DNA of 64,000 bases from Escherichia coli O127:H6 str. E2348/69 (GCF_000026545.1 NC_011601.1); one strand, 5' to 3'. Numbered from the stretch's first letter, positions 15,599-28,043 are shown. The notes: generated by a model from the sequence alone, not told the origin. Numbers and translations are program-made.

Positions 15599-15614
15599 CT
15601 CTTAGAAGGGCGTC

Positions 15615-15932
<318 letters not shown>

Positions 15933-15989
15933 AAAGCGTTGCATCAGGCACTATGAACAAGATGCCGGATCATGCATCCGGCAATTCAC

Positions 15990-16679
15990 TTAAAAACGGT
16001 GACCCGCTTCCAGCGGCACCGCTTCTTCACCAGCCTTAAACACATAAGTGGTGTTCGGGCCACCCAGCGTAGCGTGACCTTTACTTACTGTGATCCAGTT
16101 ACCTTCCGGTAGACCAATAATCGTCAGTTCTGGCGCGACGACCAGCAGTTCGCGAATACGCTGCTCACGGGTTTCACCTTTATGGCCTTCCGGCAGCGCG
16201 TTGGTGAAGTGCGGGTTGATTTGCAGCGGGAACAGATTTAGCGCATCGAAACCTTGCGGATCGACAATCGGCATATCGTTGGTGGTACGAATGGTTGGGC
16301 AAGCAAGGTTAGCGCCTGCGCTCCAGCCAATATACAGCGCGCCACGTTTCACCACGTCAGTAATGGGTGCCAGCAGCCCGCGCTCGCGGCACTGTTTCAG
16401 CAACTGGAAAGTATTACCGCCGCCGACAATCACAATTTCCGCATTTTCAATCGCGGCAACGGGATCGACAACGCTATGAATACCGGTGACAGAAACACCC
16501 AGCGGAGCGAGAACCGCAGCCGTTTTCGCTGTGTAATCATCCCAGGTCTGCGTTACGCCAGCGAAAGGAATAAATACCGCAGAACGGCGCCCCTGCAACT
16601 GTTCAGCAATCAGCGGCAGCGCGTGTTCCAGCCAGGCTTTACCCGGCAGCGTCGAGTTACTCAATAAAAGCAGTTCCAT
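15990..16679 (-). CDS. pepE: Peptidase E (alpha-aspartyl dipeptidase, S51 family)
   Basis: 229-aa minus-strand [17 protein letters not shown]...; Ser-His-Glu S51 fold pattern; expected position. Confidence 0.92.
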
Positions 16680-16802
16680 TACTTCTCCGGTTAGTAAGAA
16701 AAAACGGAAGGAATGCTACCACTGCGAATTTAACCACTTACTGACATGGCTCACGATGTCACATATTGCACAGGCGCTGAGACTGATGACAAACACAGGA
16801 TT

Positions 16803-16895
16803 GCCTGATGCGCTACGCTTACCTGGCCTACCAGATAACTGCAATATATTGAATTTTCAAGATTATGTAGGCGAATAAGGCTTCATTCCGCATCC
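16803..16895. repeat. REP-like palindromic units at the pepE / sor boundary
   Basis: gcctgatgcgctacgcttacctggcctac and gtaggcgaataaggcttcattccgcatccgcc resemble REP consensus. Confidence 0.6.
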
Positions 16896-17059
16896 GCCAT
16901 AAACAATGTGCACTTTGCCACCAATTTGAGCGCCCCTTAAGGCGCTGATGTTTTTTTATCCTTCTCGTGCACATTGTGCCGCTTCTGCAATCAGCCGCAC
17001 ATCAGGTCGCGAAGTTGCCGCGGCGACCAGCCAGCGACATGCAGGGTTAAGTAGCGCGA

Positions 17060-18289
17060 TTAATCATGGGAAATTGCCTCTGCATGGGCGAGCAGGTATT
17101 GCTCCGCCTCACCGGACCAGATCCCCTGATGACGCGCCAGAATCGCCGCCAGTGCTTGATCCTGAATCTGCGTGAGTGACGTCAGCGGCAGGAATTTCCC
17201 GGTATACACCAGCTTTTTGCCGCCGCCGACGGCAGGCAATTCAAGCGTAGTTTCGCCCGCGGCATTCAGCCCAAGAATATGTGTTACCACTTTTGCGGCC
17301 TGCACTTTTTTCTCTTCAATCAATTTGACCGCTGCGCGCATGTCGTCGGTATTGCCGCCTGACGTGCCCACGTAGTGGGTAAATGCATAATGCACATCGT
17401 AGAAATTAATTGGCGCGCTGAAGTGCTTATCCTGCGGTCCGGCGAAGAAATTCAGACAACCATCTGTCGCCAGCAAGGAAGAGGCGAGAGTCACCAGTCC
17501 TTCATTAGGCACAAAGACGAAAATATCATCGAAGCCGTGACCGCCACTCAGTGCCATTAACGTATCAAATGCTGCATCGGCGGCATTGAGATAATGAATC
17601 AGTGTTTGCGGTTCTGATGGATAGTGCTTGCGCGCATAACTCAATTTGTCGTTGTCGGTATCGGTAATGACGAGCAGCGACGGGTTAACGGGTCCATGTA
17701 GCGCATAATCAATCGCCAGCAGCCCCATCGGGCCGGTGCCGCCGAGTATCAGCGTGCGCCCTTGCGGGCGAATCCCCATCGTGTGGTTATAACTACCTTC
17801 CTGAAGATGATAGTTGGCGTTGAACGCGCCAATCACGCAGGAAAGCGGTTCAACCAGCGAGCCTTCAAAATAGGTTTCGCCGTCGTATGCCAGCAGGCAA
17901 TCATGTTCCATGACCTCGTTGGGAATAACCACATGCGTCGCTTCGCCGCCTACCCACGGGAAGGAGTAGCCGGGGCAATCCGGGCGGTCGGGGAGTTGCA
18001 GGTTGGCCTGAATCACATAACGCTGACCCGGCTGGAATTTGTGCTGCCACTTTTTACCCACGGCCAGAATATCGCCGCAAAATTCGTGGCCGATGATGAT
18101 GGGATTGGTCGCCACATCGTCGGGTACTTTTTTATGGTTTTCACCCAGATTGGCCTCTTTCCAGGAAGAGAGGCACAGGCTGTCAGTGACCACCGTTGCG
18201 AGGATTTCATCCTCCTGCATTTCAGGAAGGTCAAAGGTTTCCAGACGCAGGTCACGTTTGCCATAAAGACGCAGAGCTGTTGTTTTCAT
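17060..18289 (-). CDS. sorE: L-sorbose-1-phosphate reductase (zinc-binding dehydrogenase family)
   Basis: Minus ORF 17060..18301; start set at MKTTALRLYG with SD aggtgg; MDR/zinc-ADH-like sequence, about 409 aa, last gene of a sor-type operon. Confidence 0.75.
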   Translation of the reverse strand: MKTTALRLYGKRDLRLETFDLPEMQEDEILATVVTDSLCLSSWKEANLGENHKKVPDDVATNPIIIGHEFCGDILAVGKKWQHKFQPGQRYVIQANLQLPDRPDCPGYSFPWVGGEATHVVIPNEVMEHDCLLAYDGETYFEGSLVEPLSCVIGAFNANYHLQEGSYNHTMGIRPQGRTLILGGTGPMGLLAIDYALHGPVNPSLLVITDTDNDKLSYARKHYPSEPQTLIHYLNAADAAFDTLMALSGGHGFDDIFVFVPNEGLVTLASSLLATDGCLNFFAGPQDKHFSAPINFYDVHYAFTHYVGTSGGNTDDMRAAVKLIEEKKVQAAKVVTHILGLNAAGETTLELPAVGGGKKLVYTGKFLPLTSLTQIQDQALAAILARHQGIWSGEAEQYLLAHAEAISHD

Positions 18290-18340
18290 AAACCACCTCA
18301 TGTTGAGCGATGGCCCCGGCAGTCGTGCCGGGGCGAAGAA

Positions 18341-19195
18341 TCAGGACAGGAAGCCCAGCGCATTGCCGATAATCCCTAAGCCAAACAGGGCGAAAATCAG
18401 CCATACCGGGTTAATTTTTTTGTTGAGCAGACGAACCATCAGTAGCGTCAGACCGAGCGCCAGCAAACCAGGGCAAAGTTGGTCGAGAATGTTCTGCACG
18501 GTCATGGTGACGGTGGAGCCATCGGCGGCATGCGTTTGTGAAACCACCAACGGTACGTTGATTGACGTCCATTTGGTCACCAGCACGCCCATCACAAACA
18601 GTCCGAGAATCGACGCGCCTTCGGTGAGTTTTTGCAGCAAATTACCGCCCATATCGCTGACGATATTCACCCCTTTGCGAAAGCCGAGTTGTAGGCCATA
18701 CCACTTCATCGCCAGACGCACCGCGTTGAAAATAAAGAAAAACAGCAGCGGGCCGAGAATGTTGCCCGAAAGTGCCAGAGATGCGCCGAGCGCGGCGGTA
18801 ATCGGGCGCAGCGTTCCCCAGACCAGTGGATCGCCAACTCCTGCCAATGGTCCCATCAGACCGACTTTGATGCCGTTAATGGTACCGTCATCAATTTCCG
18901 CGCCGTTGGCCCGCGCCTCTTCCATGGCGGCAGTGACGCCGATGACCGGGCCACATACGGCTGGCGTGGTATTGAAGAACACCAGGTGTCGCCTGAGCGC
19001 CGCAACCTGATCCTCTTTTAATGGGTAAAGTCGCTTGATGGCGGGGATCATGTCGTAGCAAAAACCCAGCCCGTGAATACGTTCAAAGTTAAAGGACGCC
19101 TGTTGCAGGTTGGAGCGCAGAAACATGCTCACCAGATCGCTGCGTGTAATTTTTCTCTGTTCCATGATGGCTCCGTTAATCATCAAGTTGGTCAA
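18341..19195 (-). CDS. sorM: PTS mannose/sorbose family EIID component
   Basis: Translation aligns with ManZ-type IID (RSNLQQASFNFERIHGLGFCYDMIPAIKRLYP, GVGDPLVWGTLRP); start may be the internal MEQRK. Confidence 0.85.
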   Translation of the reverse strand: MTNLMINGAIMEQRKITRSDLVSMFLRSNLQQASFNFERIHGLGFCYDMIPAIKRLYPLKEDQVAALRRHLVFFNTTPAVCGPVIGVTAAMEEARANGAEIDDGTINGIKVGLMGPLAGVGDPLVWGTLRPITAALGASLALSGNILGPLLFFFIFNAVRLAMKWYGLQLGFRKGVNIVSDMGGNLLQKLTEGASILGLFVMGVLVTKWTSINVPLVVSQTHAADGSTVTMTVQNILDQLCPGLLALGLTLLMVRLLNKKINPVWLIFALFGLGIIGNALGFLS

Positions 19196-19973
19196 GGGCG
19201 GTGATAGTGGTGGTCTGGGGATGTGGTTCAGCTTTACGCCACTGTGGATTTAACTGGATGTAGAGCAGGGCCATGATCACGCCGACGCCACCGAACGCCA
19301 GCAGACTGAGATCGAGGTAGCCACCTGCGAGGAAACCGAGGAAAAAGAAAGGCATCAAATATTTCACGCCCATCATGCGAAGCACCATGGCGTAACCGAC
19401 CACCACGATAAAACCGCCAGCAATCTGCAGCCCACGGGTCACAAATTCGGGAATGGCGCTCAGCATATTGCTCACCATATCAGCGCTGACGAACAGCGAG
19501 ACAATCAGTGCCGGAATAGCAACGCGCAGTGCCTGCACGCCAAGCGCGGAGACATGCAGAATATCGAGAGTGCGAAACCGTGCTTCTTCCGCTGCTTTAT
19601 CCGCCGCGTGCTGGAACACTACGGTGATGGTACGGGCAAACACCGTCAGCACCTGGCCTGCAGCAGCCACAGGCAACGCGATGGCGATTCCGGTGGCGAT
19701 GCTTTGCTGACCAACGATAACCAGAATGGCGGAGATTATGCTGGCGAGTGCAGAATCCGGAGATTGCGCCGCGCCGACGTTCATCCAGCCGAGAGCTATC
19801 AATTCCAGCGTACCACCGAGCATAATTCCGGTTTTTAAATCACCGAGAATTAAACCAATCACCGTACAGGCAATTAACGGACGATGAGTCTGAAATTCAT
19901 CCAGCACGCTGCCCATTCCGGCAATACAGGAAAAAAGAAATATAGCAATGATTTGTAGGGTACTTATTTCCAT
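19176..19973 (-). CDS. sorA: PTS mannose/sorbose family EIIC component
   Basis: 265-aa polytopic membrane protein MEISTLQIIAIFLF... with ManY-like pattern. Confidence 0.85.
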   Translation of the reverse strand: MEISTLQIIAIFLFSCIAGMGSVLDEFQTHRPLIACTVIGLILGDLKTGIMLGGTLELIALGWMNVGAAQSPDSALASIISAILVIVGQQSIATGIAIALPVAAAGQVLTVFARTITVVFQHAADKAAEEARFRTLDILHVSALGVQALRVAIPALIVSLFVSADMVSNMLSAIPEFVTRGLQIAGGFIVVVGYAMVLRMMGVKYLMPFFFLGFLAGGYLDLSLLAFGGVGVIMALLYIQLNPQWRKAEPHPQTTTITALDQLDD

Positions 19974-20038
19974 AATTTGTCACCTTTTAAGTGTCGTCAT
20001 CCCTGCCTGTTAAAGCATATGTACACAGGCGCTATTAT

Positions 20039-20533
20039 TTAATTTGCGATTAACTGTTCGTTTATTTTGTCGATAATATTGATTGAGGGATCTGACGCTA
20101 CGACGCGTAAATCCAGTATGACGCCAAGATTATTTAACTCATGAAATGCGTTAATATCATCGTCATCTAATGAAACTGCTTTGGTTAACTGTTTCTTACC
20201 AGGACGCCAGGCCATACCGCCAATATTCAGGGTACCTATTTTTACCCCCTGGCGAACCATTGCTAAGGCATCTTGTGGGCGAGTGAAAAGATAAAAAACG
20301 GTTTCGTCCTGATATTGCGGGTTGTGATAAACCGCGACGGCTTTTTCAATATTGACCACGTTAACCTTCATTCCCGGTGGCGCAGCCTGACGCAATAATG
20401 TCCGGCGAACTTCATCGTTATAAACTTCGTCATTGCAGATAATAATGCGTTGGGCGTTAGCCACTTTCGACCAGACGGTAGTGACCTGGCCGTGGATCAG
20501 GCGGTCATCAATGCGGGCGAGCGTAATGTTCAT
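20039..20533 (-). CDS. sorB: PTS mannose/sorbose family EIIB component
   Basis: 164 aa, MNITLARIDDRLIHGQVTT (phospho-His IIB motif). Confidence 0.85.
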   Translation of the reverse strand: MNITLARIDDRLIHGQVTTVWSKVANAQRIIICNDEVYNDEVRRTLLRQAAPPGMKVNVVNIEKAVAVYHNPQYQDETVFYLFTRPQDALAMVRQGVKIGTLNIGGMAWRPGKKQLTKAVSLDDDDINAFHELNNLGVILDLRVVASDPSINIIDKINEQLIAN

Positions 20534-20940
20534 CAGAAATCCTCCTCTGCTGTTGCCACCTGTCTCCAGACGACGCAGGTTTGCTTTGCGATTTGCGTCA
20601 GGTGTTCACACAGTTCATCAACATTCATGCTGTCCTGGTTATCAACCAGTTCGAGCGCCAGCGGCAGAGAAAGGCCGCTGATTACCCGCAGACGAGGATT
20701 GCGCATCGCAAGCATCGCTGCCGCATTCCACGGGCTGCCGCACTGTAAATCCACGGCGATTAGCCACTCGTCATGATTGTGAATGCTCACTAACTTCTCC
20801 AGCTTTGCCACAATGTCTCCGGCGTTCTCGCCGGGCACAAATTCAACGGCCTCGACCCTGGCATCGCCGTACACCATCTGAACCGATTCCAGCATGGCGC
20901 AGGCTAATTTGCCGTGGGCGCAAAAAATGGCATTGACCAT
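20533..20940 (-). CDS. sorF: PTS mannose/sorbose family EIIA component
   Basis: 135 aa, MVNAIFCAHGKLA... (IIA active-site His region); ATGA overlap with sorB. Confidence 0.85.
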   Translation of the reverse strand: MVNAIFCAHGKLACAMLESVQMVYGDARVEAVEFVPGENAGDIVAKLEKLVSIHNHDEWLIAVDLQCGSPWNAAAMLAMRNPRLRVISGLSLPLALELVDNQDSMNVDELCEHLTQIAKQTCVVWRQVATAEEDF

Positions 20941-20949
20941 AAAGCCTCC

Positions 20950-21756
20950 TTAGCCGCGCGTTTTGCCGCCCGCAATGTTAGTGGTTACTCCGGTGATATA
21001 GCTGGCGCGTTCAGACAGCAGATAACAAACAAAATCAGCCACTTCTGCTAATCTTCCGGCGCGCCCAATAGGAATGGCGTTTTTGGTATAGCCTTCACGC
21101 AGCTGCTCGACGGTGATATTGCGCGTCCACGCCAGCGCTTCTTCATATTCCGGCGTGCGCAGTCCTGTTTTTTCCAGAATCCCCGGTGCGATACCGACCA
21201 CACGGATACCGTGCTTACCCAGCTCTTTCGACCAGGAGCGCGTGAAGCTATTGAGCGCGGCTTTGGTCGCGGCGTAACAGCTTTGGCCTTCTGAGCCTTC
21301 CAGCCCACTTTCTGAGGAAACATTCACAATCACGCCATCATGTTGTTTGACCATCTGTCGCGCCACCGCCTGCGACATCAGAAAAACGCCTTTCTGGTTG
21401 ATATTGACCATTTTTTCGAATGCAGCTTCGTTGAGTTCATACTGCCCGGCAGGCGCTTTCTCATCGACCAGCAGACGCGGGAAATTGACCCCGGCGTTGT
21501 TAACCAGACCGTCGATGCGACCAAAACGCTGGATAATTTCTGCTACCGTATGATTTACCTCTTTGGCGCTGGAAATATCGGTCGGCCAGAACTGATAACC
21601 TTTATGGCTTTCATATTGACCATCGCCACCGTGAATATCGACCATCTGTACATTCGCGCCTTGTGCTAATAATTCATCCACAATCGCCAGACCAATACCG
21701 GATGCGCCACCGGTGACAATAATGATTTTATCCTGCAAATTTAACCACGTTTGCAT
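20950..21756 (-). CDS. sorD: Short-chain dehydrogenase/reductase (D-glucitol-6-phosphate dehydrogenase of sor operon)
   Basis: 268 aa; TGGASGIG Rossmann motif and SDR catalytic YxxxK pattern. Confidence 0.8.
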   Translation of the reverse strand: MQTWLNLQDKIIIVTGGASGIGLAIVDELLAQGANVQMVDIHGGDGQYESHKGYQFWPTDISSAKEVNHTVAEIIQRFGRIDGLVNNAGVNFPRLLVDEKAPAGQYELNEAAFEKMVNINQKGVFLMSQAVARQMVKQHDGVIVNVSSESGLEGSEGQSCYAATKAALNSFTRSWSKELGKHGIRVVGIAPGILEKTGLRTPEYEEALAWTRNITVEQLREGYTKNAIPIGRAGRLAEVADFVCYLLSERASYITGVTTNIAGGKTRG

Positions 21757-21825
21757 AACAGACTCCTGATTTTAGATAATAGGTACCCGCCGTAATTTTT
21801 ATTACGGTAAACATCGGGAAGATTT

Positions 21826-22773
21826 TTATTTCAGTAATAGTTCAGCTGTGCTGCTATTCGTTACCAGACAATTAATATATTTTCCACGCAGTGCACCAAC
21901 AATTCCGCTGTATTTTTCTTCGCTCATGGCAATGCCAATGGAATACCGTGCCTGCTTCAATTTATTCATTTCGATAGAGAGTGTTTTTTCGCTCATATTC
22001 GTTTCAACCATTGCGCCGTGAATATCAAAAAAGCGCGAGCAAATATCGCCAGCAACCTGGCGGGCATTCAGGTCGTCACTCTCTTCACCACCATAAAACG
22101 CATGCCAGTTAGCGCCGTCGCGAATGGCCGGTGAGCCAATTCCCACCAGGGCGACATCCAGATTATCCCAGTAGGCAGAGATGGTTTTAAAGTGCTGAGA
22201 CTGCATGATCCCATTACGAATTAATGGGTTATCCAGCAGAGCCGGAAAATCCGCGAGATGAGATTCCCCTTTCAGCTTCGCTGCCGCGCTGTAGGATAAT
22301 GTGTTTACGTGATAGCGGCTTTCGAGTTTACCGGACGGGCCGCCAATAATCGGCACGCAAATTAACTGCCGCGATTGCCCCGCCTGCGGCAAGTTTTCAA
22401 CCAGTGCGCTCACCGCGCGACCCCAGGAAAAACCGACAATATCGCCAGGTTCCAGCAAGCGATCCAGCAGTTGCGCGCCGTGTAACCCCATCATCGCCAG
22501 TTGAGTATCTTCATCCTCATCATTTCCTGACACCACCACAACGTCTTTCAGGCCAAACTTTTGCTTCACTTGCTGCTCCAGCCAGAGATTTCCGTTGTAG
22601 TCATAGTTGATGGCGATGGTGACAATTCCCTGATCGCGGCCTCGTTTAAGCAAGCGGCTGATGGTGGTGCGGTAAATACCCAGTTCGCGCGCAATTTGCG
22701 CCTGCGTCATATCCTGTTCGTAATAGAGTTGGGCAATCTTCACAATCAAACGGATATCGTCACTGTTTTCCAT
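21826..22773 (-). CDS. sorC: SorC-family transcriptional regulator of the sorbose operon
   Basis: ORF 21826..22857; start set at MENSDDIRLIVK with strong SD aggagg; N-terminal HTH (MTQAQIARELGIYRTTISRLL) and sugar-phosphate-binding domain. Confidence 0.8.
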   Translation of the reverse strand: MENSDDIRLIVKIAQLYYEQDMTQAQIARELGIYRTTISRLLKRGRDQGIVTIAINYDYNGNLWLEQQVKQKFGLKDVVVVSGNDEDEDTQLAMMGLHGAQLLDRLLEPGDIVGFSWGRAVSALVENLPQAGQSRQLICVPIIGGPSGKLESRYHVNTLSYSAAAKLKGESHLADFPALLDNPLIRNGIMQSQHFKTISAYWDNLDVALVGIGSPAIRDGANWHAFYGGEESDDLNARQVAGDICSRFFDIHGAMVETNMSEKTLSIEMNKLKQARYSIGIAMSEEKYSGIVGALRGKYINCLVTNSSTAELLLK

Positions 22774-23120
22774 TGCCGCCTCCTGGTTCTGCACATTTGT
22801 GCAAATACGCTTTCTCACCGCTTGATCTGATATAACCCCATCATGATGGCCTTTCAAAGCGATTTTTCACTCTTTGTATGGGGGGAAATAGCGCTTTCTC
22901 TTGCACATTTGTTTCTCTGCGTAGTAGTCATCAGCACAGGTGTGCAGCGATTCGTAATTTGTTGATTATCCTTATTTTGCCAGGCAAATTTGCATCGTAC
23001 TTCCGGAGACACTTTTGTGATAAAAGGCGTGGCAGATCACATTTAATTTCGACGTTGCCGCATAACCCTGTTTTTCCCTGCTAAGAGGTACGGTATATTC
23101 CGCGTTTTACAGGAGAATTT
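22774..23120. promoter_or_regulatory. sorC upstream and rluF promoter region with TGCACA-N2-TGTGCA inverted repeats
   Basis: Inverted repeat tgcacatttgtgca at 22789-22802 and related ttgcacatttgtt near 22900; candidate SorC operators. Confidence 0.35.
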
Positions 23121-23993
23121 ATGCTGCCCGACTCATCAGTCCGTTTAAATAAATACATCAGCGAAAGCGGAATTTGCTCACGCCGCGAAGCGGATCGCTA
23201 TATCGAGCAAGGCAATGTGTTCCTTAATGGCAAGCGAGCCACCATTGGCGATCAGGTGAAACCCGGCGACGTTGTGAAAGTAAACGGTCAGTTGATTGAG
23301 CCTCGGGAATCCGAAGATTTGGTACTTATCGCCCTGAACAAGCCCGTCGGTATTGTCAGCACCACCGAAGATGGCGAGCGCGATAACATTGTCGATTTCG
23401 TTAACCACAGCAAACGCGTGTTCCCGATTGGCCGCCTGGATAAAGATTCCCAGGGGCTGATTTTCCTCACCAATCACGGCGATCTGGTGAATAAGATCCT
23501 CCGTGCGGGTAACGATCATGAGAAAGAGTATCTGGTGACGGTTGATAAACCGATTACCGATGAATTTATTCGTGGTATGGGGGCGGGAGTACCGATCCTC
23601 GGGACGGTAACTAAAAAGTGCAAAGTCAAAAAAGAAGCACCGTTTGTCTTCCGCATTACCCTGGTGCAGGGGCTGAACCGTCAGATTCGTCGCATGTGCG
23701 AGCACTTTGGTTACGAAGTGAAAAAGCTGGAACGTACGCGCATTATGAACGTCAGCTTAAGCGGCATTCCGCTGGGTGAGTGGCGCGATTTAACCGACGA
23801 TGAGTTAATCGATCTCTTTAAGCTCATTGAAAATTCCTCTTCCGAGGCAAAACCTAAAGCGAAGGCCAAACCGAAAACGGTAGGCATCAAACGTCCAGTC
23901 GTTAAGATGGAAAAAACGGCGGAAAAAGGCGGTCGCCCGGCGTCCAACGGTAAGCGTTTTACCTCGCCGGGGCGCAAAAAGAAGGGGCGTTAA
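23121..23993 (+). CDS. rluF: 23S rRNA pseudouridine synthase F (S4 domain plus RluA/RsuA-type catalytic domain)
   Basis: 290 aa; N-terminal S4 RNA-binding region; catalytic Asp region [11 protein letters not shown]; lysine-rich C-terminal tail. Confidence 0.9.
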
Positions 23994-24266
23994 TCAGCGC
24001 CTGCCGCGCGTCGACGTATTTGCTGACCAGCTAAATGACGCCTCAGGATCCGGTTTATAAGCCTGCTTTTTCTTCAATTGGCGGGCTTTTTTCGCTTCAG
24101 CCTCACGCTCGACCATTAATTTATCGATGTACTCTTTCTTAATGTTGTTAGTTTCGGAGTTGGTCAGTACGCGACCATGCGCAATCCGCGCCCGATCCAG
24201 CAGTGTTTTAAGTTCACGCTGCTCGCGTTCAGTCATCTCTTTTTGGGTAATACGGGGGAGTGCCAT
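23994..24266 (-). CDS. yjbD: Small conserved protein YjbD (DUF3811)
   Basis: 90-aa ORF at the position and orientation of yjbD. Confidence 0.7.
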   Translation of the reverse strand: MALPRITQKEMTEREQRELKTLLDRARIAHGRVLTNSETNNIKKEYIDKLMVEREAEAKKARQLKKKQAYKPDPEASFSWSANTSTRGRR

Positions 24267-24469
24267 GATGGTGCCCTCAGTGAGCCAGAGAGTTCAGTGT
24301 ACGGGAATTCGTTTGCGAGCAGAACTGATAATATTCATTTTGCCTTCTCTTAACTATTTATCTCTTTCGATAATTAGTTAGAGATGCGGATAAAAAAATT
24401 AAAGGCAATTATTCTCCGATAAAGACGCTGGTTAACAGGGAATAGACTTGTTTATTTATGGGCATAATG

Positions 24470-24510
24470 ACAAGAAAAACAATACGGCCCGAAATAATGT
24501 CTTCCGGGCC
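24470..24510 (-). terminator. Probable lysC terminator
   Basis: Hairpin ggcccg...cgggcc with adjacent A/T run just downstream of the lysC stop on the minus strand. Confidence 0.45.
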
Positions 24511-24519
24511 ATACTGTGT

Positions 24520-25869
24520 TTACTCAAACAAATTAAAATGCAGTTTTTGCACCACCTGCTCGGCATCTTCGCCGGGCACCAGGAAGCACAGGTTATGGCT
24601 GGATGCGCCGTAACAAATCATGCGAATGTTGAACGGTTCCAGTACGCCGAATACCTCTTTGCCAACGCCGCAGGCTTTTGACAGGTCATTGCCAATCAAC
24701 GCGACCAGCGCCAGACCCTCTTCCACTTCCACCCGGCACAGTGCAGACAGCTCCATCAGCAGAGATTGCGTCAGCAACGTATCGCCAGTGGAGGTTGAAC
24801 CGGTGGTATCAAGGGTTAATGCCACGCTCACTTCTGACGTGGTGATTAAGTCTACCGAAATATTATGCCGCGCGAGGATGCCGAAAACTTCCGCGAGGAA
24901 ACCGCGAGAATGCAGCATATTCAGGCTGTGCAAAGTGAGCAGAGTCTGATTGCGACGAAGCGCCAGCGCGCGGAACAGCGGCGGATTTTCAGTTTTATTG
25001 CACACCAGCGTACCACCTGCGCGTGGGTCTTTGCTGGAGCCGACAAAGACCGGGATATCGCTGCGTACTGCGGGTAGCAACGTTGCCGGATGCAGTACTT
25101 TTGCACCAAAAGTTGCCATCTCTGCCGCTTCGGCAAACGCGATTTCATCAATGCGTTTTGCTGCGGAAACCACGCGTGGATCGGTGGTGTAGATGCCCGG
25201 GACGTCGGTCCAGATATCAACACGAGATGCGTGTAAAGCCTCCGCCAGCAAGGCTGCCGTATAATCGCTGCCTCCACGGCCAAGCGTCGTTGTACGACCT
25301 TTATTTTCGCTGCCGATAAATCCCTGGGTGATCACTAAGCCTTCATTGAGGCGTGGGAGCAGCTGCAGCGCGGCCAGTTCCGCCAGCGCGGCTACATCTG
25401 GCTCTGCACGACCAAATCGGTCGTTGGTACGCATCACTTTACGTACATCAAACCACTGTGCCTGAACATCGCGTTCGCGCAGGATTTCGACAAACAGCAG
25501 GGTCGACATCAGCTCGCCGTGGCTGACCAGTTCATCTGTCAGCGCCGGAGACGTTGCCAGCGCCGCCGCTTCTGCCAGAACAGTAATGTTCTCCAGCAGA
25601 CGTTCAATCTCTTCACGGATAACGTTCGGGTAACGCAGACGTTCCAGAATGGCAAACTGGATATTGCGGATTGCGTCGAGTTTTTCGAATCGCTCGCCAG
25701 GTTCCAGTCCTTCAGCTAAAGCGACCAGCAGATTAGTGATACCAGCAGAAGCCGAGAGGACAACTAAACGCACGTTGGCATCAGAAAGCACAATATCAGC
25801 GCTGCGGTTCATGGCGTCAAAATCAGCTACGCTGGTACCGCCAAATTTGGAGACAACAATTTCAGACAT
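24520..25869 (-). CDS. lysC: Lysine-sensitive aspartokinase III
   Basis: 449-aa ORF MSEIVVSKFGGTSVADFDAMNRSADIV...; amino-acid kinase domain plus two ACT domains. Confidence 0.95.
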   Translation of the reverse strand: MSEIVVSKFGGTSVADFDAMNRSADIVLSDANVRLVVLSASAGITNLLVALAEGLEPGERFEKLDAIRNIQFAILERLRYPNVIREEIERLLENITVLAEAAALATSPALTDELVSHGELMSTLLFVEILRERDVQAQWFDVRKVMRTNDRFGRAEPDVAALAELAALQLLPRLNEGLVITQGFIGSENKGRTTTLGRGGSDYTAALLAEALHASRVDIWTDVPGIYTTDPRVVSAAKRIDEIAFAEAAEMATFGAKVLHPATLLPAVRSDIPVFVGSSKDPRAGGTLVCNKTENPPLFRALALRRNQTLLTLHSLNMLHSRGFLAEVFGILARHNISVDLITTSEVSVALTLDTTGSTSTGDTLLTQSLLMELSALCRVEVEEGLALVALIGNDLSKACGVGKEVFGVLEPFNIRMICYGASSHNLCFLVPGEDAEQVVQKLHFNLFE

Positions 25870-25929
25870 AACTACCTCGTGTCAGGGGATCCATTTTCAG
25901 CCTTGGCACAAGGGAAGAGCGGAAGACGG

Positions 25930-26165
25930 GTGGGCGCAGAGCGATACTTCGCTACTATTTTCACCCAGAAGTGCTCCACCACTTGCGAAACGCCCGACTG
26001 CGAACGCTTCTGGTGACAACCCAGGGGATTCAGCCCCTGTAGCCGATGATGAACGTGGCCAGCCGTTCAATCACCTCGGCGATGCACCCCCTCAGGTGTT
26101 ATCACAGGACTGGCTCCTCCAACACCGTTACTTGGGCAACGCGCCTCTTCTGGCCTGCGCTAGCG
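25930..26165 (-). ncRNA. Lysine riboswitch (L box) in the lysC leader
   Basis: Minus-strand leader contains GAAGAGGCGCGTTGCCCAAGTAACGGTGTTGGAGGAGCCAG, the conserved 5' portion of LYS elements; extent approximate. Confidence 0.65.
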
Positions 26166-26393
26166 CAGGTAGTACATTTATAAATAAAGGGTGAGCGGGG
26201 CGGTTGTCAACGATGGGGTCATGCGGATTTTTCATCCACTCCTGGCGGTCAGTAGTTCAGCTAATAAATGCTTCACTGCGCTAAGGGTTTACACTCAACA
26301 TTACGCTAACGGCACTAAAACCATCACATTTTTCTGTGACTGGCGCTACAATCTTCCAAAGTCACAATTCTCAAAATCAGAAGAGTATTGCTA

Positions 26394-28043
26394 ATGAAAA
26401 ACATCAATCCAACGCAGACCGCTGCCTGGCAGGCACTACAGAAACACTTCGATGAAATGAAAGACGTTACGATCGCCGATCTTTTTGCTAAAGACGGCGA
26501 TCGTTTTTCTAAGTTCTCCGCAACCTTCGACGATCAGATGCTGGTGGATTACTCCAAAAACCGCATCACTGAAGAGACGCTGGCGAAATTACAAGATCTG
26601 GCGAAAGAGTGCGATCTGGCGGGCGCGATTAAGTCGATGTTCTCTGGCGAGAAGATCAACCGCACTGAAAACCGCGCCGTACTGCACGTAGCGCTGCGTA
26701 ACCGTAGCAATACCCCGATTCTGGTTGATGGCAAAGATGTTATGCCGGAAGTCAACGCGGTGCTGGAGAAGATGAAAACCTTCTCGGAAGCGATTATTTC
26801 CGGTGAGTGGAAAGGCTATACCGGCAAAGCAATCACTGACGTAGTGAACATCGGGATCGGCGGTTCTGACCTCGGCCCGTACATGGTGACTGAAGCACTG
26901 CGTCCATACAAAAACCACCTGAACATGCACTTTGTTTCTAACGTCGATGGGACTCACATCGCGGAAGTGCTGAAAAAAGTAAACCCGGAAACCACGCTGT
27001 TCCTGGTAGCATCTAAAACCTTCACCACTCAGGAAACCATGACCAACGCCCACAGCGCGCGTGACTGGTTCCTTAAAGCGGCAGGTGATGAGAAGCACGT
27101 TGCGAAACACTTTGCGGCGCTCTCAACCAACGCCAAAGCCGTTGGCGAGTTTGGTATTGATACTGCCAACATGTTCGAGTTCTGGGACTGGGTCGGCGGT
27201 CGTTACTCTTTGTGGTCAGCGATTGGCCTGTCGATTGTTCTCTCCATCGGCTTTGATAACTTCGTTGAACTGCTTTCTGGCGCACACGCGATGGACAAGC
27301 ATTTCTCCACCACGCCTGCCGAGAAAAACCTGCCTGTACTGCTGGCGCTGATTGGCATCTGGTACAACAATTTCTTTGGCGCGGAAACTGAAGCGATTCT
27401 GCCGTATGACCAGTATATGCACCGTTTCGCGGCGTACTTCCAGCAGGGCAATATGGAATCCAACGGTAAGTATGTTGACCGTAACGGTAAGGTTGTGGAT
27501 TACCAGACTGGCCCGATTATCTGGGGTGAACCTGGCACGAACGGTCAGCACGCGTTCTATCAGCTGATCCACCAGGGAACCAAAATGGTACCGTGCGATT
27601 TCATCGCTCCGGCTATCACCCATAACCCGCTCTCTGATCATCACCAGAAACTGCTGTCTAACTTCTTTGCTCAGACCGAAGCGCTGGCGTTTGGTAAATC
27701 CCGCGAAGTGGTTGAGCAGGAATATCGCGATCAGGGTAAAGATCCGGCAACGCTTGACTACGTGGTGCCGTTCAAAGTGTTCGAAGGTAACCGCCCGACT
27801 AACTCCATCCTGCTGCGTGAAATCACTCCGTTCAGCCTGGGTGCGTTGATTGCGCTGTATGAGCACAAAATCTTTACTCAGGGCGTGATCCTGAACATCT
27901 TCACCTTCGACCAGTGGGGCGTGGAGCTGGGTAAACAACTGGCGAACCGTATTCTGCCAGAGCTGAAAGATGATAAAGAAATCAGCAGCCACGATAGCTC
28001 GACCAATGGTCTGATTAACCGCTATAAAGCGTGGCGCGGTTAA
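26394..28043 (+). CDS. pgi: Glucose-6-phosphate isomerase
   Basis: 549-aa [22 protein letters not shown]...; PGI signature throughout. Confidence 0.95.

Follow-up and report, generated by a model that had tools for sequence, protein, structure and literature searches.

The DNA analysed here, a 64,000-nucleotide stretch of the Escherichia coli O127:H6 str. E2348/69 chromosome (GCF_000026545.1 NC_011601.1; hereafter the window), contains seven intact, adjoining ORFs between pepE (15990-16679, minus strand) and rluF (23121-23993, plus strand). All seven lie on the minus strand, together span positions 17060-22773 and are either separated by gaps of 0-69 bp or overlap. In the direction of transcription they are sorC (21826-22773), encoding a 315-aa SorC-family regulator with an N-terminal HTH and a sugar-binding domain (PF04198, E=9e-80, plus HTH matches); sorD (20950-21756), for a predicted SDR-type D-glucitol(sorbitol)-6-phosphate dehydrogenase of 268 aa (NF004817); sorF (20533-20940), for a 135-aa PTS EIIA of the mannose family (TIGR00824, PF03610); sorB (20039-20533), for a 164-aa EIIB of the sorbose subfamily (TIGR00854, PF03830); sorA (19176-19973), for a 265-aa EIIC (TIGR00822, PF03609); sorM (18341-19165), for an EIID of 274 aa when counted from the annotated ATG (TIGR00828, PF03613); and sorE (17060-18289), so named in RefSeq, for a predicted L-sorbose-1-phosphate reductase of 409 aa with a medium-chain zinc-dependent dehydrogenase fold. 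The RefSeq record of E2348/69, to which the DNA is 100% identical, annotates the identical set of seven sor genes and flags none as a pseudogene; the mechanically called ORFs of sorC, sorM, and sorE start upstream of the annotated start codons. Pfam and NCBIfam searches recovered all domains expected of sor operon products, and the same succession of regulator, SDR dehydrogenase, IIA, IIB, IIC, IID, and reductase is found in at least 30 loci of other genera. An initial annotation of this DNA had proposed seven minus-strand genes in the order sorC-D-F-B-A-M-E, and ORFs, domains, and RefSeq features all agree with it. In gene content, order, integrity, orthology, and chromosomal position, the block at 16680-23120, which is exactly the pepE-rluF intergenic span, is a sor operon, and we hold it to be very probable that it represents sorCDFBAME, the chromosomal operon for L-sorbose catabolism in E. 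coli, in an E2348/69-type genome.

Comparison with characterised Sor proteins, suggested at the outset as a check, places the products close to those of K. pneumoniae. SorC aligns over its full length of 315 aa with the crystallised K. pneumoniae SorC (PDB 2w48) at 85.7% identity (E=4e-181), and the ATG of sorC at 22773 is preceded by AGGAGG and agrees with the start of the RefSeq CDS. SorB shares 86.9% identity over 160 aa with K. pneumoniae IIB-Sor (PDB 1nrz). The sorbose affiliation first proposed for the PTS likewise held up, as SorB is far closer to IIB-Sor (305 bits) than to the mannose IIB (171 bits). The mannose-family EII is encoded as four separate subunits, with IIB grouping with IIB-Sor, and the phospho-histidines of the PTS subunits are present (His9 of SorF in a CAHG context, His15 of SorB within LIHGQV). 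SorF matches TIGR00824 with 145 bits (cut-off 98), SorA matches the EII-Sor model TIGR00822 with 422 bits (cut-off 340), and SorM matches TIGR00828 with 472 bits (cut-off 293), its nearest solved structure being E. coli ManZ (PDB 6k1h, E=4e-111). Since IIC and IID are both also near the mannose transporter ManYZ, their substrate assignment depends on operon context. SorD scores 501 bits against NF004817, ‘sorbitol-6-phosphate dehydrogenase subunit’ (cut-off 304), and contains the SDR motifs TGGASGIG, NNAG, and YAATK; the curated model and the motifs together predict D-glucitol-6-phosphate dehydrogenase activity. In SorE, the zinc-ligand and MDR motifs GHE, Cys39, EPL, and GTGPMG are present, the closest solved relatives are a sorbitol dehydrogenase and a ketose reductase, and orthologues in syntenic sor operons are 84-98% identical. 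Its name relies on orthology and annotation, because the Pfam matches (ADH_N, ADH_zinc_N) are weak and the NCBIfam profile search gave no equivalog; annotation, MDR fold, and orthologues concur in predicting an L-sorbose-1-phosphate reductase.

The control region of sorC (22774-23085) lies within operon-specific DNA. A repeat search located a perfect palindrome, TGCACAAATGTGCA, in a conserved block at 22790-22803, and half-sites related to it are positioned at 22902-22911 and 22934-22946; all three are candidate SorC operators. A putative promoter is formed by TTTGAA as -35 (22853-22858, minus strand) and TTATAT as -10 (22830-22835, minus strand), which predicts a transcription start shortly after TTATAT, at ~22823-22829 on the same strand. 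Palindrome, half-sites, -35, and -10 are invariant or nearly so in 18 sequences from more than ten genera, whereas the intervening sequence varies. The promoter proposal rests on this phylogenetic footprint, because a consensus promoter/terminator scan, in which sites were no commoner than in shuffled sequence, did not call the sor promoter, itself non-consensus. When the palindrome motif was sought across the window with up to three mismatches, 7 sites were found compared with ~10 expected, no more than by chance, and the operator argument is therefore one of three-site clustering and cross-genus conservation. We infer that the conserved blocks correspond to SorC operators and the sor promoter.

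The 3' end of the transcript is associated with a nested stem-loop (16903-16977, minus strand), in which 11-nt outer arms surround a GC hairpin at 16929-16946. This element was found as an inverted repeat, its hairpin is listed by the promoter/terminator scan, its RNA fold reaches -35.6 kcal/mol (z = -4.3), and it is likely to act as a terminator or 3' stabiliser of the sor transcript. An Rfam search of positions 13000-26500 returned the lysC lysine riboswitch as sole match. A BIME-like REP pair occupies 16803-16900 and consists of a good REP unit at 16803-16831 and, in inverted orientation, a degenerate partner at ~16867-16900. The former has two mismatches to the REP consensus, with 0 matches expected by chance, which confirms the REP-like repeats noted earlier on the pepE side; the latter gave no match at up to three mismatches to the consensus and was called degenerate by reading the sequence.

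Downstream of sorE, alignment to an intact gene (270 aa; locus L008, 8755-9567) revealed that of sdhL, which encodes a shikimate-dehydrogenase-like protein, a remnant of 112 nt persists (16956-17067, minus strand). The first 58 nt and the last 54 nt are kept, a 701-bp internal deletion separates them, and a stop occurs at codon 7. The ATG of the remnant overlaps the sorE stop (ATGATTAA), and in most other genera the intact gene also overlaps the stop of sorE. The operon, initially described as complete, is so for the canonical seven genes but not for this eighth one. Intact SdhL protein matches H. influenzae HI0607 (PDB 1npy, E=1e-111) and NF009202. HI0607 is not known to have an established physiological substrate. 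Loci of the Klebsiella oxytoca group and of Raoultella keep sdhL, unlike E2348/69 with its remnant (K. pneumoniae itself is outside the loci fetched). Within E. coli, the gene is intact in only ~6% of sor+ genomes and is kept in ST648-type strains, where it is co-induced by sorbose (PMC12817954). Most E. coli, E2348/69 among them, lost sdhL through a single deletion of 701 bp, and no accompanying loss of sorbose growth has been reported. The overlap with the sorE stop and the co-induction in ST648 suggest that SdhL may act on a sugar or sugar phosphate of the sorbose pathway and not on shikimate; that the ancestral sor operon comprised eight genes, with SdhL, as the orthologue of HI0607, having such a role, is a tentative proposal, which we consider possible but doubtful. 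A role as 5-ketofructose reductase was rejected, the match to PDB 7cok being at family level only (E=7e-17) and weaker than that to ordinary AroE enzymes. A characterised enzyme of the 5-ketofructose reductase type yields D-fructose and not L-sorbose (PMC7954740), which likewise counts against this specific link. The remnant points to a conserved, putative link between an enzyme of unestablished role and sorbose metabolism.

The sor block occupies a chromosomal site at which E. coli genomes differ. In K-12 MG1655, pepE and rluF are adjacent and 211 bp apart, confirming the position and the absence from K-12 that had been claimed for the operon. The metH-iclR region is near the pepE-sor-rluF locus, and E. 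coli sor was reportedly mapped genetically near metH/iclR, in work attributed to Wehmeier et al. 1992 and Woodward & Charles 1982. Homology to the sor-negative strain 504838 and to K-12 stops at 16769 and restarts at 23086, which delimits 6316 bp of operon-specific DNA (16770-23085) absent from sor-negative E. coli. In its place the sor-negative (K-12-type) allele carries 86 unrelated bases and is thus not a clean deletion; as this filler matched none of the sor+ loci fetched, the direction of the presence/absence change is deduced from synteny. A count over 5426 complete E. coli genomes placed the operon between pepE and rluF in 2865 of them (~53%). Sampled sor+ E. coli genomes are 97-99% identical over the 8.4-kb query and have the same pepE and rluF flanks and the same metH-iclR neighbourhood. 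According to a published survey, the operon is carried by 9.6% of genomes in phylogroup A, by 12.1% in B1, and by >86% in each of the other phylogroups (PMC12817954).

Beyond E. coli, the sor operon lies beside rluF/yjbD, and mostly also pepE/yjbB, in Escherichia species, Pseudocitrobacter, Citrobacter, Klebsiella, Raoultella, and isolates labelled Enterobacter. Overall, the operon is syntenic in seven or more enterobacterial genera. Cedecea and a few others showed no pepE in the interval from sorE to yjbB, and the sor loci of Erwinia, Pantoea, Mangrovibacter, and Serratia have no rluF within 10 kb. Nucleotide identity of the operon is about that of its flanks, at ~97% compared with O157:H7 and 90-95% compared with other Escherichia species. 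GC content ranges from 0.41 to 0.58 inside the block and from 0.44 to 0.57 outside, with local dips but no sustained shift, and at the borders there is no tRNA gene, no integrase among the ORFs, and no flanking direct repeat. Hence, none of the hallmarks of a genomic island was observed, be it atypical composition, mobility genes, tRNA genes or repeats, or divergence discordant with the flanks as judged by identity and synteny. The shared position across genera and a divergence equal to that of the flanks argue for a sor locus that was probably already present at pepE-rluF in the ancestor of Escherichia and its relatives, and is absent from K-12 and most A and B1 strains. The earlier term “accessory metabolic island” is apt in that the operon is variable in E. 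coli and missing from K-12, but synteny in at least seven genera and flank-like divergence speak against the recent acquisition that it might suggest. A recent horizontal gain of the operon by part of E. coli, inserted at the pepE-rluF site and with the K-12 arrangement being the ancestral one, would fit the variable presence within the species, the REP repeats at one edge and the nearby IS element, the sor-negative allele with its own 86 bp instead of a simple scar, and the few genera that hold the operon elsewhere. We regard it as improbable, given that the position is common to at least seven genera, that divergence tracks the flanks within and between species, that integrase, tRNA gene, and direct repeats are lacking while GC is ordinary, and that most phylogroups carry the operon in the large majority of genomes (PMC12817954).

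Based on protein families and the literature on the characterised Klebsiella/E. coli system, L-sorbose would be taken up and phosphorylated to L-sorbose-1-phosphate by SorF (IIA), SorB (IIB), SorA (IIC), and SorM (IID). SorE would then reduce L-sorbose-1-phosphate to D-glucitol-6-phosphate, which SorD would convert to D-fructose-6-phosphate for entry into glycolysis. SorC, encoded by the first gene, would govern expression from a promoter located between sorC and rluF, probably via the conserved TGCACA/TGTGCA palindromes. Because closely related operons work in other strains (PMC12817954, PMC2808357), E2348/69 is predicted to be Sor+, as initially proposed; a literature search for the sorbose phenotype of this strain found none. 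EAEC 042 has the sor operon and uses sorbose, whereas K-12 does not (PMC2808357). The seven sor genes are the strongest sorbose-induced genes in ST131 and ST648, deletion of sorE abolishes growth on sorbose, and knock-in of the operon into ST10 confers growth, albeit only after 48 h; in a sorAM deletion mutant, sorbose uptake persists via other PTSs (PMC12817954). Operons of the strains shown to use or respond to sorbose in these studies (PMC12817954, PMC2808357) are 97-99% identical to that of E2348/69.

That E2348/69 carries a cryptic operon and is Sor-negative, owing to strain-specific missense or regulatory changes or to the loss of sdhL, appears very improbable. Its Sor phenotype is indeed a prediction, sdhL is reduced to a remnant, and the delayed growth of the ST10 knock-in indicates that genetic background matters (PMC12817954). 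All seven ORFs are nevertheless full length with their motifs intact, the control region agrees with the conserved footprint, and ST131, also without sdhL, shows both growth on sorbose and induction of the operon (PMC12817954). It is still less probable that PTS and dehydrogenases serve a ketose or hexitol other than L-sorbose (for example mannose, fructose, or sorbitol), for even though the NCBIfam models of IIA-IID are generic (mannose/fructose/sorbose), IID is near ManZ, and sorbose import by the sorAM mutant indicates loose transport specificity, the score of IIB is far better with K. pneumoniae IIB-Sor than with the mannose IIB, SorC is the orthologue of the regulator of K. pneumoniae sor, and near-identical operons are induced by L-sorbose and need sorE for growth on it (PMC12817954).

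As an L-sorbose operon, the locus has the same gene set and order as the characterised prototype, K. pneumoniae sorCDFBAME, to which SorC and SorB are closely similar as described above, and the sor operon likewise adjoins rluF in genomes of related Klebsiella and of Raoultella. The sor PTS shares its transporter family and its IIC/IID architecture with E. coli ManXYZ (PDB 6k1h). Unlike in ManXYZ, however, IIA and IIB are separate proteins, with SorB much nearer to IIB-Sor than to the ManX IIB domain, and the sor transporter is encoded together with SorE, SorD, and SorC. The sor operon is already known from published descriptions of its organisation, distribution, sorbose induction, and mutant phenotypes, and the loci of EAEC 042, ST131, ST648, and CFT073 (PMC2808357, PMC12817954, PMC13410766) are the same as that of E2348/69 without substantive difference. 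Recent studies have drawn attention to it both as a fitness factor and as a marker for which pathogenic and high-risk E. coli lineages are enriched (PMC12817954, PMC13410766). To this question the result for E2348/69, a textbook accessory catabolic operon, adds nothing; its added value lies in a cross-genus synteny arguing that K-12-type strains are without an ancestral locus, in the exact boundaries of the operon-specific DNA, and in the sdhL remnant. Just beyond pepE and outside the variable segment, the E2348/69 locus further contains an IS1397 with a nested ISEc21, unlike other described E. coli sor loci.

Window positions 16680-23120 coincide exactly with the pepE-rluF gap (pepE 15990-16679, minus strand; rluF 23121-23993, plus strand), in which an ORF scan identified seven contiguous minus-strand reading frames, with gene starts being those of RefSeq on the identical record. 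These are sorC (21826-22773, regulator, 315 aa), sorD (20950-21756, SDR dehydrogenase, 268 aa), sorF (20533-20940, PTS IIA, 135 aa), sorB (20039-20533, PTS IIB, 164 aa), sorA (19176-19973, PTS IIC, 265 aa), sorM (18341-19165, PTS IID, 274 aa) and sorE (17060-18289, reductase, 409 aa), separated by 0-69 bp, with a one-base overlap of sorF and sorB. All seven assignments are backed by Pfam and NCBIfam profiles. The initial annotation of a seven-gene minus-strand sor operon between pepE and rluF is confirmed as an observation and supported in its interpretation; the operon itself is already known and ordinary.

SorC combines an HTH with a PF04198 sugar-binding domain (Pfam) and shares 85.7% identity with Klebsiella pneumoniae SorC (2w48) over its full length. 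The SDR protein SorD, harboring TGxxxGxG, NNAG and YxxxK motifs, scores 501 bits against the curated "sorbitol-6-phosphate dehydrogenase subunit" model (cut-off 304). SorF, SorB, SorA and SorM pass the mannose/fructose/sorbose IIA, IIB, IIC and IID models, respectively, and the expected His9 in IIA and His15 in IIB are present. SorB, the sole PTS component with a characterized sorbose reference, shares 86.9% identity with K. pneumoniae IIB-Sor (1nrz) and groups with sorbose (305 bits versus 171 bits against a mannose IIB domain), which answers the refuting condition set in the initial annotation, that PTS components fall into a different substrate family. Among solved structures SorM is close to ManZ. 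Pfam and NCBIfam matches of SorE are confined to weak hits to medium-chain dehydrogenase domains. It contains Cys, GHE and EPL zinc-site motifs and a GxGxxG motif, and its closest solved relatives are sorbitol dehydrogenases and a ketose reductase. Within the operon, sorF has diverged most (92.9% nucleotide identity with O157:H7, compared with 96-98% for neighboring genes; 75-93% protein identity across genera), in agreement with the four sorF clusters described (PMC12817954).

According to the characterized system (summarized in PMC13410766 and PMC12817954), the PTS would import L-sorbose and phosphorylate it to L-sorbose-1-phosphate, which SorE would reduce to D-glucitol-6-phosphate, and SorD would oxidize the latter to D-fructose-6-phosphate. 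For near-identical operons of other strains it has been shown that the seven sor genes are the strongest sorbose-induced genes, deletion of sorE abolishes growth on sorbose and an ST10 strain with a knocked-in operon grows on it; EAEC 042, but not K-12, uses sorbose (PMC12817954, PMC2808357). A literature search for the sorbose phenotype of E2348/69 found no data. The sor region is 100% identical to the E2348/69 record NZ_CP059840.2, in which sorE is named and no sor gene is flagged as a pseudogene.

Counted as present at ≥80% of an 8.4-kb query, the operon occupies the pepE-rluF site in 2865 of 5426 complete E. coli genomes, the remainder matching the flanks only; in K-12 MG1655 pepE and rluF are neighbors, 211 bp apart. 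Its presence has been reported in >86% of the genomes of every phylogroup except A and B1 (PMC12817954). As sequence shared with sor-negative genomes stops at 16769 and restarts at 23086, the strain-variable DNA comprises 16770-23085 (6316 bp). It stands in place of 86 bases, located at L002:2337-2422 in a sor-negative comparison locus and in the K-12 pepE-rluF gap (L003), equivalent to the window junctions 16769/23086.

The initial annotation had termed the operon an accessory metabolic island. It is variable among E. coli. No tRNA gene, integrase, flanking direct repeat or sustained GC shift was seen at the locus. One genome per species was scanned with SorE, followed by tblastn of the seven Sor and flanking proteins. 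In other taxa sorCDFBAME likewise adjoins rluF/yjbD and is flanked at its other end by yjbB and, as a rule, pepE: in Escherichia whittamii and other Escherichia, Pseudocitrobacter, at least eight Citrobacter genomes, the Klebsiella oxytoca group, K. spallanzanii, K. indica, Raoultella, several isolates labelled Enterobacter, and Cedecea. Synteny in E. albertii was confirmed on the pepE/yjbB side only, because the contig ends within sorA, and tblastn did not find pepE between sorE and yjbB in Cedecea, K. indica and two other isolates. At nucleotide level, sor genes and flanking core genes are conserved to an equal degree, both within E. coli (~97% identity versus O157:H7) and between Escherichia species (~90-95%). 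Read most simply, this is an old locus that K-12-type lineages lack. This falls short of proof, since the 86-bp filler has no match in any fetched sor+ locus and the sor-negative allele is therefore more than a deletion scar. Further afield, two Enterococcus species (L034, L036) harbor a collinear set of all seven genes at 30-73% protein identity. In Gilliamella loci (L038-L048) the regulator gene lies downstream of sorFBAME, and a SorD orthologue is not adjacent. The Enterococcus and Gilliamella loci resemble transfers or rearranged variants.

The 290 bp from the left junction to sorE hold three features. REP-like repeats noted earlier on the pepE side were recovered as a good REP match (16803-16831) with a degenerate partner (~16867-16900). 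A nested stem-loop at 16903-16977, identified by inverted repeat and RNA fold, is a plausible transcript end. Just after sorE lies a 112-nt minus-strand remnant (16956-17067) of sdhL, a shikimate-dehydrogenase-like gene, which keeps the first 58 and last 54 nt around a 701-bp deletion and has a stop at codon 7; O157:H7 carries the same remnant. The start codon of intact sdhL (L008:8755-9567, 270 aa) overlaps the stop of sorE (ATGATTAA). This overlap exists in most other enterobacterial genera, including other Escherichia species, Pseudocitrobacter, Citrobacter, Klebsiella, Raoultella, isolates labelled Enterobacter and one Serratia isolate, and full-length sdhL is kept in only 177 of 5426 E. 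coli genomes. Its product matches NF009202 and is an orthologue of Haemophilus influenzae HI0607 (SdhL; PDB 1npy, E=1e-111). The sdhL-sor association is not new, as Swiatek et al. noted sdhL beside sor in ST648 only, co-induced by sorbose (PMC12817954); the remnant in the window and the cross-genus conservation are additions to it.

Alignment of the 230 bp 5' of sorC from 18 sequences of >10 genera revealed invariant blocks amid variable sequence. These comprise a perfect palindrome, TGCACAAATGTGCA (22790-22803), just upstream of the ribosome-binding site, CAAATGTGCA (22902-22911), GCACAnnnGTGC (22934-22946), and GGGTTATATCAGATCA and CTTTG, which fit a putative -10 (TTATAT, 22830-22835) and -35 (TTTGAA, 22853-22858) spaced by 17 nt. 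Judged by conservation, these blocks may represent the sor promoter and SorC operators. A consensus promoter scan missed the proposed sor promoter, and the number of palindrome-motif matches by itself did not exceed chance.

Further features surround the locus. Between yjbB and pepE, an IS3-family IS1397 (13100-15900) is interrupted by a 1374-bp IS110-family ISEc21 (14241-15614; transposase ORF 14522-15598, 358 aa). In the E2348/69 assembly CP059840.2 this IS1397 copy is uninterrupted and ISEc21 resides inside another IS3-family copy; as several other genomes likewise carry ISEc21 within an IS3-type transposase gene, this suggests site-specific nesting. The rluF and yjbD stops abut at 23993/23994, and the 132 bp separating these genes in K-12 (L003:4728-4859) are missing in the window and many other strains. 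A membrane-like ORF of 149 aa lies upstream of yjbB (10843-11292); the metH-yjbB interval, with two annotated hypothetical genes in JNEC-KY178 and only a 220-bp gap in K-12, is another small variable segment. Upstream of lysC, the expected and annotated lysine riboswitch is located at 25961-26157 on the minus strand (99.5 bits).
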